Assembly: GCA_963789265.1 (NCBI GenBank)
Contig: CAWBKB010000001.1
Span: 1,696,001 to 1,760,000 of the forward strand
Direction: 5' to 3'
Source: an uncultured delta proteobacterium
GTDB taxonomy: Bacteria; Desulfobacterota; Desulfomonilia; Desulfomonilales; Desulfomonilaceae
DNA length: 64,000 bases
Made by a program: the position numbers and the translations under genes. Shown piece by piece: positions 28,615-38,916 of this stretch (position 1 is its first letter; each line of letters begins with the position of its first letter). Below the pieces are notes generated by a model. The model was given only the letters and a program-made list of their open reading frames with translations. It searched no databases and had not been told where the DNA came from.

Positions 28615-31600
28615 TCATCGAAAAAGAATGTAGCGTCTTGAATCACGCCAATCATCTGGTTTTTGATCGTGGATGGACTTGAAATAACCTCGCTTCTCAT
28701 GAATGTGGGTGCACACTATTCTGTTATAGCGATTACATATTTCGGCAAGTAATTCACACCGCACCCGTAGCCTAACTCCGAATGAGAGCTTTTCACGAGT
28801 GTAGCTCTCATCTTGGTAACCTTCCTGCCACACTTCATAGGCTGCAACCCTTTGCCCATTCTTCAGAAGGTCGAAAACCTCGAATGAGAGTTCCAAGTCA
28901 CGTAGGATGAAAGAGGCCAGTGAACAGATATTCCGATACCCCAGGAAAGTAAAGGGATTCTCGTGTTCCGCAATGAGCGGAATACTTTCATGTCTGTCTA
29001 CATCCAGATTGTCGGTTCTCGTTCTGAGCAAGGTCTCGCGTGCTTGCGCAAGGGTAATTGCGCTTTCGAAATCAGTAATTGCGAACCGCTCTGATACGAA
29101 AGCAATTTCGTCCAACACGTTTGCCTCATTGTAGACCCCCGATGGAATCAAGAACGATTCCAGGGATATCTCTTGTCTATACGGCACGTTGTACTGCTCT
29201 TCCTGCGCCAGTGTGCGTTTCTCGAAGATGGTTATCCAATCACCGCCATCTATTGGCGTTGTACGGTCCTCAACATGCATGGATTCAAGTTCACCGAGTT
29301 CGCTGAACCATGCATCCTTATCTGTTACACGAAGAGGGGGAATATCTTTGGGCCTAGGTATCACGCCACGGGTAATATATTCAGGGTCAACCGTTTGAAT
29401 AGTACGGCAAAGCTGACCAATCTGGCTTTCAGTCAGCCTGAGCTTCTCTGTTGCCTCATCGAGAATGGACCATAGAGCTTTGGACGCTCGTTTCTTGGAA
29501 ACGCGTCGTGATCCATACAACTGGCCAGCCCTGAGGATGGACATGCCCGTCCCAATCGTCTTTGACGCGATCTCGTTCTTCATCAATTGACCAACCTTGA
29601 GTTTTTAGCCTATCCTCAATGGCTGCGATAAGACTTCCGACAGGAACACGCAGAATCTTGTCCAATGCTAGAACCCGTCGAAAGAAACCAGTCAATGTGT
29701 TGCGCTTCATAAACGCCATGAATCCCACTGAAGGATTTTGAGGAAGCCGGTAAGTCGGATAGGAAATGATGTGCGAGTATGCTTTTTCCACTCGGTCGAT
29801 CGAGATGAGCACCGACTCATCCAGCGTCGAGAACTCGGCAACGAGCCTTAGGATCCGTAAAGTTTCCTGGCGGCAGAAGAAGTCATTTCGGTCAAGGAGG
29901 CGGGCAACAGATTGTTGGTAGGCGGCCAGTGATGCAGGAACTTCATGCGCGAGACAACTGAGCACCACTAGTAATCTACTCTTCGTCCGTCCTGAAGAAT
30001 CTAACGCTCTATTCACTATACGATAAATGGTACTTTCCCGGCGCTCAATCGCCAGCCGTGTTAATGCTCTGACCAGCCTCTCGCCGAGATCGATCTCCGG
30101 TGTCTCAAGTTGATCAATGATGAAGTCCAGAACTAGCTGATTCATTTCCTCCGATGGCTCTTCGTACTGCTTCAACCATGAGTATTCCTCGTCTTGCGGG
30201 AGTTGTGCGAACATGGTCTCGCAATGTTCAAGGAAATCGTCAAAAACATGTTCAAGCATGAGCGATTCATCGAACACATCAAGCCCCGTCGCCGCAAAAG
30301 GCGGTGTGTCATGGCCTCCACCGGATCTGCGCGCGGAGTCATAACATTGCTTCAGTAAGAGTGTTTCAGCGGCCTGTCTGTTTGCTGACGCTACAACTGC
30401 GAGGTATTTCCTGCTATCTCGCCAGGGAAACCAACTTCTAGAACATCCATACGCGACCCCGAAACCGGCAATGGCATTGTCACTATCGCCTAATTCCAGG
30501 AAGCGCTCGGCCAAGGCTTCAATGACGTCGGCATTCTGCGATGGTCCTTGGGATTCCGCGTATTCTTTGATTGGGAGAAGGTCTGTCGCCGCCGTCGCTG
30601 CTGCTATGTGGTGCCTCAAAACAATGTCGATGAGATGCGGCTCGTAGAAAACCTTATTTTGCTTCTTCAGCTTATCGATTGTCTCCAGAAACACGGGAAA
30701 CGAGACACGGCACTTGCTTACCACGTCGTCGTTCGTGATAGTCTCCCCATCAAACGCATAGCCGGGCCGCCTCTTTGCCTGTGCCTCATTGCTTTTCGGC
30801 GTTTCACCATTCTGCTCAGTTTGTCTGTCCAGTTCCGGTTTCAGGTCCTGCGGCCAATGTCGGGGAGAGACATCCGACAGCACAAAATGCCTGAAGCGAT
30901 TCTCGAAGTCCTGGAACACATCTTCACGATCTGACTGTTTCACCAAGTCAACCACATGCTGCCGGATCCCCATAATTTGTTTGCAGTGTCGGCCGTCACG
31001 GCTGTCATGATTGGAAAATATTTCCGCGAGGCACCAAAGGCACTCGGGATCTCCTTCCGTTGCACTCATAATGTATGACTCCAGGCAGTCCTGCATCTGC
31101 CATCTTGCGGTTGTGCGGCAGAAATGTCTGAGCAAGTCAAACGCTGCCCTCCGATTTACGGCAAGAACAGCTTCAAAAACCTCCTTGACCAAGTATTTGG
31201 TCTCCCTGCCATCAGTCAAGTGGGGCATCCAGCGCACCATTGACAATACACGGGCGCACCGTTCCAGGGCCGTTTCCGGCTGCCGCCGATTTACTAGCTT
31301 AAGGACATCGATTAAGTATAGGAGGGTGAGGTCTTTGTGATACCCGTGAATCAGCGAAGAGCGGATGCCGTAGCGTAGCCACTTCTTAGCATCTGCCCTC
31401 ATTCCGCACTTAGCCATAAGGGCCGCAAGCTGGAGAAAATGGTCCGATCGACTGCCCCCCTTCAAGAGGGTTGAACTCTCATAGGTAATTGCACAGCTCT
31501 TCAGGATCGGGACCAAGCCGGGCCGCACCCCAGGGCTCTTTGCAAGGATTTCCCATAGCCTTAATTCAAAGGTATAATCTTGAATTGATTCGTCTATACC

Positions 31601-34600
31601 GAAGTGCATAGTCCAGAGCAGTGAATTGCGCAGAGATTCGAGTTCCGTCACCCAGTGTATCAGTCGTTCTGGATAGCGCCTTTCAACGCATTCGGTCAGC
31701 AGCCCAACGCTTAAGAGCAGTACGTCCCTTATGAGTTCAATCGATTCAGGGATTCTTTCGCCGTCGCCTTGCTCAGCTCTAACGAGTATGGCAATGCTCT
31801 GGCGAGCCTCTTGATACCAGTCATTCTCGTCAGAGCGTAGCGACCTCCCTATGCATCGGCCTGCCTCGAGGAGATGATGGAGGGCAGAGGCCCAGAGAGT
31901 ATGGTTCTTACCAACTAGGGTGCTGCGAATCTCATGGAATATCGGGTTTTCCTCATACCCAATTGTGATGAATGAGTACGCATACCATCTGAGCGTAGGA
32001 TCACTTCGGGAAAGATAATCGGGGCTTTCTGTCTTTGGGGCTTCTATTGGCCCAGCAACAGTAGCTACACCGGAAGGCAGAATCCCTGCTTTAGCAGCGT
32101 AGAAAGCAAGCTCCACATTACCGACCGGCTGCTCCTGCGACAAATACTCGGAAACATTTACCCTCAGCTCCTCAATGCGGTTGTGTTGAGCCAAAGCCCG
32201 AATCAACAAGTATCGCACGAGCTTGTGTGGGAAGAGTATCTTTACTCTCTTGAGCTTAGACCACTTCTCCACATGTCCGAAGTGGACAAGAGCGTCGATA
32301 TAAGCCTCTAACTGCGGTGCATATCCGGGAGCGAATGGGTCATTTTGTTCCAGGGTCCCGGGGGCCAGTCTGAACTGTGATAGCCATCGAAGCGCTCTGG
32401 GCAAGGCCTCCAAGTAAATTCCCAAACATCTCGCGATTCTAACGACCTGGGACTTGATGTCACTTCCGATTCGGGTATCGACGCCCCGGAACTCATCCGT
32501 GAATACCTCGAAGAGACGGTTTCCAAGCTCCCTCTTTCCTTCCTCTGCGAGGCTGAACATGACATCAAGCGCTGTGCGAGGTTCTATAAGCCAGCGATTG
32601 GCTTCCGCTGAATAGGCGAAGCTCATAACCTCCTGCTCGCGGCCTAGTGCGAGCAGTGCATTTGCGAGGAGAGTGTGATCGAGATTGTGTTCAAATCGCT
32701 CCCACGTTCGGTATCCTAACGGCCCGAGTCGACTGAGCCGTACGATATTGCGGCTCTTAAAGGCTGACTCGACGGCCCAGTGTATGGCATCCAGAATTTC
32801 CGGAGATGGCCTGCAGTGCATTAACGCACGATCAACGAACTCAGTGTTCACCTCCTCCAAGACGTATATGTAATCCTCGGCCTCGTGGGAGTACTCGAAA
32901 ACATGACTGAACCAACGGGGCGAATCCTTGTTGGCCTTGAGAAAGGATGCGATCTGACCACGTATCTCACGTAACCAATCATCAGAGATTTGACCAATCA
33001 TAAATTCGCGGAAGCTATTGTGGAAAACGGTCAACCTGTCTTGGGTGGGCCTCAGAAGGTGGCTCATGCATTTGAACGCGTCCTCGAACGCTGGCCGTGT
33101 CAGAGCCCCCTGTATTCGAAAGAGTTCATCCCTGTGCACACTGAAACGCAAGCAAGCCATGACGGCACACAGATGCCTTGCCTCACCCATGCCAACACGC
33201 TCAAATTCTTCCCACAAAAGCTCGTAGTAGCGACGTATGTCGCCTCCGGCCGCAGGGGCTAATGAATCCAAAGTCTCTGTTGGCGACTCACTCGCAATAA
33301 GTTTCTCCGCCACGTACCACAGATAAAGAGGCAAGCCTTCGCACTTCCTGTGCACCTTCACAATGTCGGCGTGAGACAGCTCTGAGAGTCCTCTCTTGGT
33401 GCATAAGTATTCCTCTGTCTCCGCTTCGGAAAAGAGGGGCATTTGGATATGGCTGCTTGGATTTTCTCTCGCGCGTTTAAGGAAATGGGGCCATTTGTGC
33501 AGCTCTTGGGTCCCCACAATAATGGTAACACCTGAGGGAACGTCGGGCGGAAGAGTTGAAATCACCGTGTCTCTGATTTCGGGCTGCAGTCGTTCAGCAT
33601 GATCCAATCCGTCCAGAAAAATTATGAATCTTCTGTTTTTCTGGGTGAAATGTTTGGCAAGGGTTGCCAGGCTTTCCAGAAAGTTACTTTCACTGTAATC
33701 GAAACGCCTTTTGAGGACGTTCGGATATCGCCGGTGGAACTCACTCAGAAGATTCGCACGAAGGCTTTCAGCCTGAACCCGCATTTTTTGCGCGTTATCG
33801 TTTACACCAACGAAACAGTAGTAGCTAAAGATCTCGCATTCGCGTCTGTCAAACCGGTTGAAGTACGTGGTCAATGAGGTGGACTTACCACTTCCGGGAA
33901 GGCCGGTGACAATCAGGTATCCGCCGCTGATCTCAGGCAGCACCCGGTCAAGTTGCTCTGAAAGGGACCGCTGCTCTACGAATTGCGCAGAGTTAACTGG
34001 GAACACTTGGGGCATAAGCAGTTTGCTCTGAAGTCTCTCCAGAAGCCTGTCTATCAAATAGGGTGTTATAGGGTCTCGGGAATAAAGTGCATTCTCCTTG
34101 ATGGCATCCCTGAGGTCAAAAAAGATCGAGTCCTCCGACAACCCCAACTCTTTGTCCAGAAAGTTTCTGATGTGCTGCTCTAGGTCCGGAAGCATTGGTT
34201 GTCGCAACATAAACCGGAACTCACCCAAGAAGGTGGTGAAAGGTTCGGCGTCGAGTCCTGAGGCAGTGGCTAGCTGCGAACGGATTTCCTTAGCATCCCC
34301 CCGACTTCGGTCCTCGATGACCTCACACGCAAATCCCGTTCCTTTCGCGTTCACAAGGTCTACTAGAGGTGCATCAAGACCTCGGTTGGAGCAAAGGTAG
34401 GCAGTACGCTTGTGATTGGGGAACCGTTCCCTCAATTTCTGCCAACTGGCAGCGAATTTTCTGATGCTAACAGGGCTCTCCGGGTTAAGGAAGTCAGCCA
34501 ACTCATAGACCGAAAGGGGTTTGACGGCATACTTGACTTGGTAGGCGAGGATATCTGATTCCTGGAAAAGAACGATGTCATCGAGGTTGCCAGACTTTTC

Positions 34601-34726
34601 GTACTCGAGATATATCTCGAAAGGCTTTCGATCGACATACGCTTCAAGGACTAAGCGTAGCGCAGTAAGGTCCTGATAGTCATCTCCCTTTCTTCGGGAG
34701 CTTCCTCTTTTGCCTGATTCCGACAT
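28615..34726 (-). CDS. Large nuclease-STAND NTPase (Avs/AVAST-like, Avs3a-like architecture), ~2036 aa; frameshift at ~29492
   Basis: N-terminal GDDYQD..E..DD..QVK restriction-like nuclease motif; Walker A GLPGSGKS, Walker B FLDGLD, GLPLY; long helical C-terminus; deleting one A joins the 1756-aa and 323-aa ORFs. Confidence 0.8.
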
Positions 34727-37377: not shown

Positions 37378-37462
37378 ACGGGACCTCATGTGGGAGACTT
37401 ATAAGTAAGGATAACGCGTACAATAATGACTTGCAACCAAAGCAAGTGAATGGAATCAGTAC

Positions 37463-37491
37463 TTGACACTTGTGATTTTAGATACTATAAC
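37463..37491 (+). promoter_or_regulatory. Sigma70 promoter of marR with overlapping operator; probably leaderless
   Basis: TTGACA-17nt-TATAAC; ATG begins 7 nt after the -10 box; TTTTAG-ATA-CTATAA palindrome at 37476-37490. Confidence 0.8.
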
Positions 37492-37497
37492 CATCCC

Positions 37498-37946
37498 ATG
37501 TCCGTGGAATCGAGCAACCTGGCTGAACGGATTCGCCGCATTATCAACCGGCTGATTTTCTTGGAAAAGCGTAGCGTTATTCAGCAAGAGGGGGTGCGGC
37601 TCCACCCCTCGGAAATCCATTTGATGCAGGTCATTAAGGAACGTCCCGAGCTAAATGCCGGCGAGATGGCGCAACAGCTCGCAGTTAGCAACGGCGCGGT
37701 ATCCCAAACTTTGGCCCGACTTGAAAGAAAAGGAGTTATCACGAAGTCCCGAGATCCCTCCCTCAGAACAGAGTAACTGCGATGTTTACCGAGCCCGGAA
37801 GGATGGCTATACAGCGTTTTGAGGAGGAACGGGCCTCGTCTGTTAGGTCTTTCTCTAACTACCTTTCCAGTCTCTCCGAAGGGGAAATGAAACTGATCGA
37901 CAGCTTCCTTTCGCACATGGAAGAATTCCTCGCAGAGTTAGAGTAA
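37498..37946 (+). CDS. MarR-family transcriptional regulator; 1-nt frameshift at ~37765
   Basis: SEIHLM..AGEMAQQLAVSNGAVSQTLARLERKGVI wHTH; the shifted frame continues NRVTAMFTEPG..FLAELE to TAA 37946. Confidence 0.85.
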
Positions 37947-37963
37947 TTTTTTTTGCGTTGTGT

Positions 37964-37978
37964 TTATAGCATCTAAAA
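37964..37978. promoter_or_regulatory. Second copy of putative MarR operator
   Basis: TTATAG-CAT-CTAAAA matches the reverse complement of 37476-37490 at 14/15 nt. Confidence 0.7.
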
Positions 37979-38033
37979 CCAACATTATCATGTTTTCTGG
38001 ACTTAACCTCAAAAAGCAATGAAAGGAGCGAGC

Positions 38034-38777
38034 ATGCGTAACAAGCTGATGGCTGGGGTGTGGCGCTACATCCTGGGTGTTCCGCCGTTTCTCTGGGAAA
38101 AACAAATTCAGAGAGCTGTCCGCAAAGTGGAACGTTCCACTCGATTCATGACCGCGGAGCACAGGCTGGTTCATCACTACGTGGTCAAAGAGTTGCCGCG
38201 CTACAGTAAGCCCATGGCTCCGGACTTGGTGGCCCGGAGATTGAACCTAGATCCGGCGCGCACTGTGGAGATACTGGAGGACTTAGAGAGGCACCTGACC
38301 TTCGTGTACAGGGACAAGGAGGGAAAAGTGACCTGGGCTTATCCCGTGACGGTGGAAGAAACGCCCCATTCCATAACCTTCCATTCGGGAGAGGAGTTAT
38401 ACGCTGCTTGAGCGGTAGACGCGTTCGCGACGCCCTTCGTGCAGGGGCGACTCAGGGGTGACGCAGTGTCTGTGGGCGTGGTATCTGAATGCGCCCATTG
38501 CAAGCGAACCATGCGTATGGAGATCGACAGTGATATGAATTGCAGGTGTCAGGACGGGGATTGCAGCCCTATAATCTTCGTTCCTGAAGTGGATTTTCAA
38601 ACTCTGAAAGATCCAAGCATAATAGATTCGTTTTGAAAGGAGAGCGTTTTCTTCTGGTCAGAAGAACATGCTAGAGAATACCGTAGAGAGACTCACAGGG
38701 TGCGGGGCTCGTACTTCACGGCTCGACAAATAGCTTACTTGAATACGCGAATTCAGAGCGCTTTATTCGGATGGTAG
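38034..38777 (+). CDS. MerB-like organometal lyase with two selenocysteines (247 aa)
   Basis: Read-through of TGA 38409-38411 (LYAA-U-AVD) and TGA 38634-38636 (DSF-U-KESVFFWSEEHA) gives one ORF with MerB motifs (HTH, AYP..ETPH, SECAHC, FFxS); AAGGAG RBS before ATG 38034. Confidence 0.85.
38431..38449 (+). promoter_or_regulatory. Putative SECIS hairpin for the first UGA
   Basis: CGCCCTT-CGTGC-AGGGGCG stem-loop starting 20 nt after the UGA. Confidence 0.65.
38643..38672 (+). promoter_or_regulatory. Putative SECIS hairpin for the second UGA
   Basis: TTCTTCT-GGTC-AGAAGAA core (38649-38666) extended by AGCG/TGCT; loop resembles the GGTCT loop of the SelW SECIS. Confidence 0.7.
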
Positions 38778-38916
38778 GTTTGCCGTGCCGGATCTGACGA
38801 AGAGGCTTTTGGAAATCGGTTACAGACATCTATGATGAATGAAATCATCATTGAGTTTGCGTCTGTCTTTCTCGGTCCCGGGCTCGGCCCGGGAACCAGG
38901 CATCCAGTGGGTACTC

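Follow-up and report, generated by a model that had tools for sequence, protein, structure and literature searches.

We analyzed a 64,000-nucleotide stretch of DNA, hereafter the window, from the genome of an uncultured delta proteobacterium of the Desulfomonilaceae (GenBank assembly GCA_963789265.1, contig CAWBKB010000001.1, positions 1,696,001 to 1,760,000 of the forward strand; unprefixed coordinates below refer to the window). It contains a gene for a protein resembling the organomercurial lyase MerB, in which two in-frame UGA codons are predicted to encode selenocysteine (Sec). The gene lies on the forward strand at 38034-38777 as a single frame, from ATG 38034 to the TAG at 38775-38777, and gives a protein of 247 amino acids on read-through. 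The frame is interrupted only by two TGA codons, at 38409-38411 and 38634-38636, and appears under translation table 11 as two open reading frames (ORFs; 38019-38411 and 38439-38636) followed by an open stretch at the end. The initial annotation had joined these two ORFs and the open segment into one frame split only by TGA and had quoted several MerB-like motifs from it; the frame and the length of 247 amino acids are borne out, and WAYPVT, ETPH, LYAA-U-AVD, SECAHC, and SF-U-KESVFFWSEEHA are all found in the read-through translation. A second in-frame ATG lies at 38019, 5' of ATG 38034, but we rejected it as the start and preferred 38034 because of the ortholog N-termini and the Shine-Dalgarno spacing: ortholog matches mostly begin at residue 6 of the translation from 38019, that is, at the methionine of 38034, aligned orthologs start with M-x-N-K-L-M, and a Shine-Dalgarno-like AAAGGAG (38022-38028, forward strand), read from the sequence, stands 5 nt 5' of ATG 38034. 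With this start the two UGAs become Sec126 and Sec201. The first (38409-38411) opens the motif U-A-V-D, a UxxD in place of CxxD, and occupies the position of MerB Cys96; the GAC codon of Asp129 (38418-38420) occupies that of the MerB proton donor Asp99; and the second UGA (38634-38636) occupies that of Cys159, with Cys153 between them. Short-read contigs of run X1, a possible sample of origin, cover both TGAs with 0 differences.

The conservation of the two UGAs is far beyond chance. We ran a pattern search over one genome per GTDB species and took the window gene and the best 80 of 299 relatives as the ortholog set. All 81 sequences, at identities of 47-92%, have TGA at the two sites; the two codons are 75 codons apart in 78 sequences and 74 in the other 3, and protein similarity extends past both of them to a shared C-terminus. 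In the 80-sequence alignment A4, both Sec positions and Asp129 are invariant (80/80), as are the stretches WAYPVT, P-F-V-Q-G, and F-F-x-S-E. No cysteine stands at the equivalents of MerB positions 96 and 159 in the window or in its 80 orthologs, which have TGA throughout. The gene was also matched in 26 genomes of an evenly drawn phylum sample of 401 (match threshold E <= 1e-10), and even at identities as low as 41% the full-length matches, 26 in all, have two in-frame TGAs each and no more. Homologs therefore keep TGA in both columns where the initial annotation had proposed to look for it, and conservation does not end at the TGAs. Both UGAs and the sequence downstream of them are evidently under purifying selection, and the gene is by all comparative signs functional. 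One phylum-sample genome carries an additional gene copy in two adjacent pieces with one TGA apiece (G275:C7:5036-5771, reverse strand), which may be a frameshifted duplicate.

The read-through protein matches the Pfam MerB family (PF03243, NosL/MerB-like fold) over residues 111-244, scoring 55.1 bits where 27 are required (E 9.8e-15). An AlphaFold model of the di-Sec protein, computed with alignment A4 as input, reached a predicted local distance difference test score (pLDDT) of 85.2 and a predicted template modeling score (pTM) of 0.83. When this predicted structure was compared with the PDB using Foldseek, the top 11 matches were all MerB or MerB2 (template modeling scores of 0.75-0.78 by target). 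VIA-align superposed the model on MerB2 (5c17) with a Z-score of 21.9 and a root-mean-square deviation of 2.9 Å over 206/206 residues, and on MerB with a Z-score of 19.8, the next fold scoring 5.4. The window gene is thus predicted to encode a protein of the full-length MerB fold, the architecture first proposed for it from its motifs. According to the accessible part of a published account (PMC8261052), the signature that defines MerB consists of Cys96, Asp99, Cys117, and Cys159; in a profile-to-PDB alignment these correspond to Sec126, Asp129, Cys153, and Sec201, which agrees with the earlier placement of the UGAs on Cys96 and Cys159 with Asp99 kept. The local alignments are clear: L-Y-A-A-U-A-V-D falls on LYAWCALD of MerB, which holds Cys96 and Asp99, E-C-A-H-C on the Cys117 region, and S-F-U-K-E-S-V-F-F on S-F-C-(C/S)-H-V-H-F-F around Cys159, so that Sec201 stands opposite the Cys159 of the MerB FC(C/S) motif and the cysteine of the MerB2 TCK motif. 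Cys153, the equivalent of Cys117, is shared by the window protein and no less than 90% of the family. Judged by the predicted model, the protein shares with MerB and MerB2 (PDB 3f0o, 3f0p, and 5c17; EC 4.99.1.2) the same full-length fold (Z 19.8-21.9), two chalcogen ligands plus an aspartate, a buried Cys117 equivalent, and an N-terminal winged-helix-like domain. It differs from them in sequence (15-18% identity), in the replacement of cysteine by Sec at both ligand positions, and, unlike canonical MerB, in the distribution of its family, which belongs to strictly anaerobic lineages going by the host names of its relatives.

Each UGA is followed by a hairpin, as the initial annotation had reported, and both hairpins fit the bacterial rule for selenocysteine insertion sequence (SECIS) elements on the loop G and the distance from the UGA. 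Hairpin 1 (38432-38448, forward strand) has a 6-bp stem, GCCCUU/AGGGGC, in which 38432-38437 pair with 38443-38448 in the consensus fold, and the loop CGUGC (38438-38442). Hairpin 2 (38645-38670, forward strand), encoded by the conserved motif S-V-F-F-W-S-E-E-H-A, has a stem of 3+7 bp, with 38645-38655 paired with 38660-38670 in the consensus fold, and the loop GGUC (38656-38659). The loops start 26 nt after the first UGA and 19 nt after the second, contain a G within their first two positions, and are invariant among the orthologs. Paired cells amount to 98.7% in hairpin 1 and 98.8% in hairpin 2, every slid control has fewer, and for both hairpins the covariation score and the number of both-side changes exceed those of all 500 shuffles. 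Counted over distinct rows, the outer pair of hairpin 1 is GC in 68, UA in 5, and unpaired in 6, and the closing pair of hairpin 2 is U-A in 65, C-G in 13, and U-G in 2. The switch in the latter combines a change of TGG (Trp) to CGG (Arg) with a silent change of TCA to TCG in the opposite Ser codon, and a quick maximum-likelihood tree of the family requires no fewer than 8 changes in the state of this pair, a count with a small circularity, as the tree was built including the Trp/Arg column of the closing pair. Synonymous codon use is constrained as well: in hairpin 1 the codons are fixed as CCC (99%) and TTC, GTG, and GGG (100% each), and in hairpin 2 as TTC and TTC (100%) and GAA (99%), whereas the codons of the equally conserved WAYPVT, outside the hairpins, vary freely. 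Codon entropy averages 0.49 bits over the 14 hairpin codons, as opposed to 1.44 over 46 conserved codons elsewhere (Mann-Whitney p 7e-6).

Some results weigh against taking these structures as SECIS elements. Folded as single sequences, they do not exceed shuffles in stability (z -0.5 and -0.9), so that the argument for them is a comparative one; both-side changes are limited to one pair per hairpin, most pairs being invariant and embedded in conserved coding sequence; and an Rfam scan of 38300-38800 returned no SECIS family, only a chance-level match to PhotoRC-I (E 1.4). Read across the orthologs, the data nonetheless show a conserved in-frame hairpin of bacterial SECIS type behind each UGA. 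They also bear on the possibility that the TGAs are true stops, which would make the locus either a MerB pseudogene in decay or a set of three short ORFs, with hairpins that arose by chance. Such an account would fit the splitting of the frame under table 11, public gene calls that mostly end at the first TGA, and the shuffle-level stability of the single sequence; it is exceedingly improbable given TGA at both sites in 81/81 sequences with a protein conserved (47-92%) to a common C-terminus, two TGAs in all 26 full-length matches of the phylum sample, a full-length fold predicted with confidence, and synonymous constraint confined to the hairpins.

The genome to which the window belongs (6.06 Mb in 9 contigs) contains the Sec machinery that the initial annotation had asked for, every component scoring above its cut-off: selA with 594 bits, selB with 386, selD with 360, and tRNA-Sec with 71. 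The selD gene (L010, G000:C7:193442-194362, reverse strand) itself has one in-frame TGA and would thus encode a selenoprotein form of SelD. Of the 26 genomes carrying the di-Sec gene, 24 have a match to selA, the two carriers where it was unmatched being G148 (99% complete) and G360 (90% complete), against a background of 371 of 401 genomes; this co-occurrence is uninformative because selA is nearly universal in the phylum sample.

The way in which public databases record the gene raised another alternative, namely that TGA is read here as some other residue (Trp or Gly) through an alternative code or near-cognate read-through. A search of 5.8 billion proteins gave 58 matches, from which 17 full-length gene calls, mostly on 1-kb JGI contigs, could be aligned, and 16 of these 17 have W at both Sec sites; the remaining one, P0028, has Ser and Cys instead. 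We infer that gene callers working on 1-kb contigs translated TGA under a TGA=Trp code (code 4). TGA is not reassigned genome-wide, because 45 of the 81 orthologs use it as their terminal stop (TAA in 20 and TAG in 16) and selA and selB of the window genome are open under table 11. In addition, the two sites are exactly the catalytic Cys positions, with Cys in distant homologs, and the genome has a full Sec machinery as well as SECIS-like hairpins, so decoding as Trp or Gly is scarcely credible. The alternative-code and pseudogene readings are both contradicted by the comparative data, and Sec at the two positions is the reading that we retain.

Other database entries are truncated: public calls of ~140-150 amino acids end directly before the first TGA, and a library of 1.84 billion representative proteins contains 524 matches at E <= 1e-3, the best 150 of which are mostly ~125 amino acids long and end at query residue 130, that is, at the first UGA. 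The prediction that standard annotation would split the gene is thus confirmed both by the table 11 ORFs and by public calls that mostly end at the first TGA, and surveys of merB in anoxic sediments miss the gene because it is truncated to ~125 amino acids. A few distant relatives differ at the Sec sites. Seven of them, at no more than 43% identity, have Cys at site 1 (P0060, P0063, P0068, P0072, P0075, P0082, and P0083), and all of these except P0082 end just before site 2, presumably as Cys/Sec forms like SaoL; in P0028 and P0065, Ser occupies site 1 and Cys site 2. Since Cys/Sec, Ser/Cys, and Cys/Cys relatives exist, the family is a natural test case for Sec versus Cys at a metal site. Five further proteins at 28-37% identity (P0064, P0066, P0070, P0086, and P0098) have lost the Sec/Cys positions and the Asp and carry F-(F/Y)-C-S-E-E-H-A, with Cys replacing the Trp of the family; these may form an offshoot without Sec whose active site is arranged differently.

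By the cut-offs of NCBIfam (release June 2026), the di-Sec family is neither SaoL nor canonical MerB. The protein reached 47.3 bits with the SaoL model NF040728 (cut-off 140), and 46.4 and 42.7 bits with the canonical MerB models NF009710 (cut-off 193) and NF033555 (cut-off 200), respectively. The initial annotation had already set the protein apart from SaoL, and the second site, F-U instead of C-U, adds to the score in support of this. SaoL, as far as the accessible text of its description goes (Haft and Gwadz, 10.1101/2022.07.06.499078), averages ~213 amino acids, has Cys99, Asp102, and a C-U dipeptide with a single Sec, and is a marker of the nine-gene SAO locus. On the same partial basis, both proteins are selenoproteins of anaerobes with a MerB-family fold, encoded outside mer operons and routinely truncated in databases, with Sec at the Cys159 position and Asp at the Asp99 position of MerB. 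They differ at the Cys96 position, which is Cys in SaoL, whereas the di-Sec protein has Sec at both positions and its gene two SECIS hairpins, and they differ in genomic context, SaoL belonging to a nine-gene SAO neighborhood (ABC transporter, SaoC, SaoE, and others) and the di-Sec gene accompanying a MarR or MerR regulator. No SAO-type genes occur among the seven flanking genes within ~6 kb, the Sao families having been searched for in this neighborhood and not genome-wide.

Sec-containing MerB proteins are otherwise little represented in catalogs. Table 1 of a 2026 selenoproteome review (PMC13188914) comprises 119 families and subfamilies, in which the only MerB-like entry is SaoL (CU, 1 Sec), and the double selenoprotein MbdU (NF045648) in the list of that review had no match in our NCBIfam scans. 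BSepDB (PMC13326102) was built, according to the available part of its description, from previously reported families, and that part of its main text, to which the supplementary family table does not belong, makes no mention of MerB or mercury. Full-text literature searches found no Sec-containing MerB other than SaoL.

The window genome has only one other MerB-family gene, which encodes a protein of 235 amino acids (P0208; G000:C1:710531-711235, reverse strand, equivalent to L101:1372-2076, reverse strand). It scores 59.7 bits with the Pfam MerB model and 44.9 bits with SaoL, below the cut-off. P0208 likewise has two in-frame TGAs, in the motifs G-Q-U-R-F-E and A-Y-T-U-S-T-M-N-L-F-R-S-E-E-H, which align both with the MerB2 equivalents of Cys96 and Cys159 and with Sec126 and Sec201. 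The two proteins are only remotely similar (20% identity, BLASTP E 0.057) and differ in their N-terminal regions and in the last residue of the site 1 motif, a Glu in U-R-F-E of P0208 and Asp129 in U-A-V-D of the di-Sec protein. Among the matches to the P0208 family listed for the phylum sample, 42 of 58, in 37 genomes, have exactly two TGAs. Because this family is di-Sec as well, Sec at both MerB ligand positions appears to be a recurrent and stable state in these anaerobes.

The genes within ~6 kb of the di-Sec gene encode TIM-barrel and radical SAM proteins, a NUDIX hydrolase, a chaperonin, PyrBI, and an amidohydrolase, and an ORF of 1756 amino acids lies ~3 kb upstream of the locus on the reverse strand (29456-34726). 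Among the 81 loci, the only gene clusters common to more than 15 are the gene itself with its overlapping ORFs and regulators of the MarR and MerR families. We scanned for upstream ORFs on the same strand, of at least 80 amino acids and ending within 350 nt, and 70 of the 81 loci qualified; the regulator is MarR in 23 of the 70 and MerR in 16, or 39 together. MarR is found upstream in the closer relatives, including the window, and MerR in the group at 52-61% identity (loci L044, L055, L058, L061, L063, L066-L068, L071, L075, L081, L085, L087, L090, L092, and L099). The MerR regulators of these distant orthologs have a conserved C-terminal domain, W-H-x-E-F-E ... H-Q-E-F-L-E-G-L-G-I, with no conserved Cys. 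The description of the gene as stand-alone therefore stands as far as mer and sao genes are concerned, none of which occurs within ~6 kb, but not as regards the regulator, with MarR directly upstream in the window and MarR or MerR in 39 of 70 loci.

In the window, the MarR-family regulator (37450-37946, forward strand; Pfam MarR E 2.5e-11) reads as frameshifted, in two ORFs (37450-37776 and 37782-37946). The 92%-identical locus L021 has one extra A in this gene, corresponding to a 1-nt gap in the window, and short-read contigs of runs X1 and X8 have an A inserted behind 37764. On these grounds the frameshift is most likely an assembly (homopolymer) error, and we rejected a real MarR pseudogene. 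The intergenic region between MarR and the merB-like gene is nearly identical in L021 and contains a promoter-like TTTATA-17-TATCAT (37963-37991, forward strand), a weak match to the consensus only.

The same genome has an hgcA gene on the reverse strand (L105:946-2025, equivalent to G000:C4:258983-260062), encoding a protein with a C-terminal membrane domain and the sequence NVWCAAGK, which we take to be the HgcA motif. An hgcB-like ferredoxin gene adjoins it just downstream, with G-V-G-C in the Cys form. In frame upstream of hgcA the sequence reads ...S-C-TGA-P-P..., and a C-U extension has been reported for HgcA selenoproteins in the accessible part of the SaoL study (Haft and Gwadz, 10.1101/2022.07.06.499078). 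Our organism is thus a putative mercury methylator. HgcA matches counted as strong (E <= 1e-70, a limit chosen once the list had been inspected, with the HgcA fragments of G297 not included among them) were found in 14 of the 26 carriers of the di-Sec gene and in 107 of 375 non-carriers (odds ratio 2.9, Fisher p 0.013), and any HgcA match at E <= 1e-20 in 18 of 26 versus 118 of 375, related genomes not being independent in either comparison. We take this modest enrichment as a weak hint, a lead rather than evidence of function.

On balance, we consider it probable that the gene encodes a di-Sec MerB-fold protein that uses Sec126, Sec201, and Asp129 to cleave an organometal bond under MarR or MerR control, and, within this analysis, its function would most likely be that of a high-affinity organometal lyase. 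In this scheme, SelB and Sec-tRNA(Sec) would decode the UGAs at 38409 and 38634 as selenocysteine, which would place Sec126 and Sec201 where MerB binds mercury, beside the proton donor Asp129. MerB breaks metal-carbon bonds by protonolysis. By analogy, the two selenolates would clamp the soft metal of an organometal compound while Asp129 would protonate the leaving carbon, with cleavage of the metal-carbon bond. Methylmercury or another organomercurial would be the leading candidate substrate, organotin, organolead, or other soft organometal(loid) compounds being possible as well. Selenolates have a lower pKa than thiolates and a higher affinity for soft metals, and a pair of them would favor the capture of trace substrates in sulfidic anoxic habitats, with slow release of the product as the price. 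As there is no MerA partner, the metal would be passed to something else or would stay bound. The adjacent regulator, of MarR type here and of MerR type in other lineages, would control expression as in an inducible detoxification gene.

Several points count against this proposal. Sec at positions 126 and 201 is deduced from sequence, and no RNA runs containing the locus are listed, only DNA contigs. No merA, merT, or merP lies nearby, and the best MerA match genome-wide has 387 bits against a cut-off of 454, with none above it (merT and merP were searched for in the neighborhood and not genome-wide). The upstream regulators have no conserved Cys, the MarR proteins having zero and the MerR proteins a single, non-invariant one; because they lack the conserved cysteines of a thiolate sensor, regulation by Hg(II) itself is not indicated. 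Strong HgcA matches are missing in 12 of the 26 carriers, so that the link with methylation is not obligatory. Finally, on chemical grounds, Hg(II) may be held so firmly by two selenolates that turnover is prevented.

In an alternative view, the di-Sec protein would be a non-catalytic sink, sensor, or chaperone of very high affinity that holds inorganic soft metals such as Hg(II), Cd, Cu(I), or Ag between its two selenolates. The established fact that Hg-Se bonds are stronger than Hg-S bonds speaks for this. The absence of a MerA above cut-off to take the product, and of any transporter nearby, would be in keeping with such a role, as would the retention of Hg(II) by MerB after the reaction and its binding of other metals, mentioned in the accessible portions of two studies (PMC8261052; 10.1101/2022.07.06.499078). 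We nevertheless regard this as unlikely, for the proton donor Asp129 is invariant in 80/80 sequences (although the same residue of MerB also ligates metal), the entire MerB core is kept, including the conserved residues around both sites, and the upstream regulators have no metal-thiolate sites. These same regulators could be taken to point away from metals altogether, toward a redox protein (diselenide/selenol) or a carbon-heteroatom lyase acting on an organic substrate sensed by the regulator: MarR-type and Cys-less MerR-type regulators typically answer to organic ligands, those found here have no conserved Cys, and the protein falls well short of the equivalog cut-offs for MerB and SaoL. 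Most selenoproteins are moreover redox enzymes, according to section 7 of the selenoproteome review in its accessible form (PMC13188914). A role outside metal chemistry seems quite improbable to us, however, as the invariant residues are exactly the metal and proton triad of MerB and no redox partner gene is conserved nearby.

An organometal lyase with Sec at both metal ligands, encoded with two in-frame SECIS elements, would represent a distinct chemical solution to the task of MerB, and its gene is both widespread, with 299 species-level genomes in one pattern scan, and systematically mis-annotated. Apart from lyases of the MerB type, no enzyme is known that breaks the Hg-C bond of methylmercury. 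If the di-Sec protein is indeed an organometal lyase, it would be a concrete, testable candidate both for the breakdown of methylmercury by anaerobes and for a molecular connection between the cycles of selenium and mercury. We suggest tentatively, as a possibility well short of probable, that the two di-Sec MerB families could constitute a selenium-dependent organomercurial lyase system of strict anaerobes (Thermodesulfobacteriota, Nitrospirota, and Chloroflexota), many of them mercury methylators themselves, and provide the enzyme for methylmercury degradation independent of mer operons in anoxic sediments; if so, selenium availability would be tied directly to net methylmercury production.

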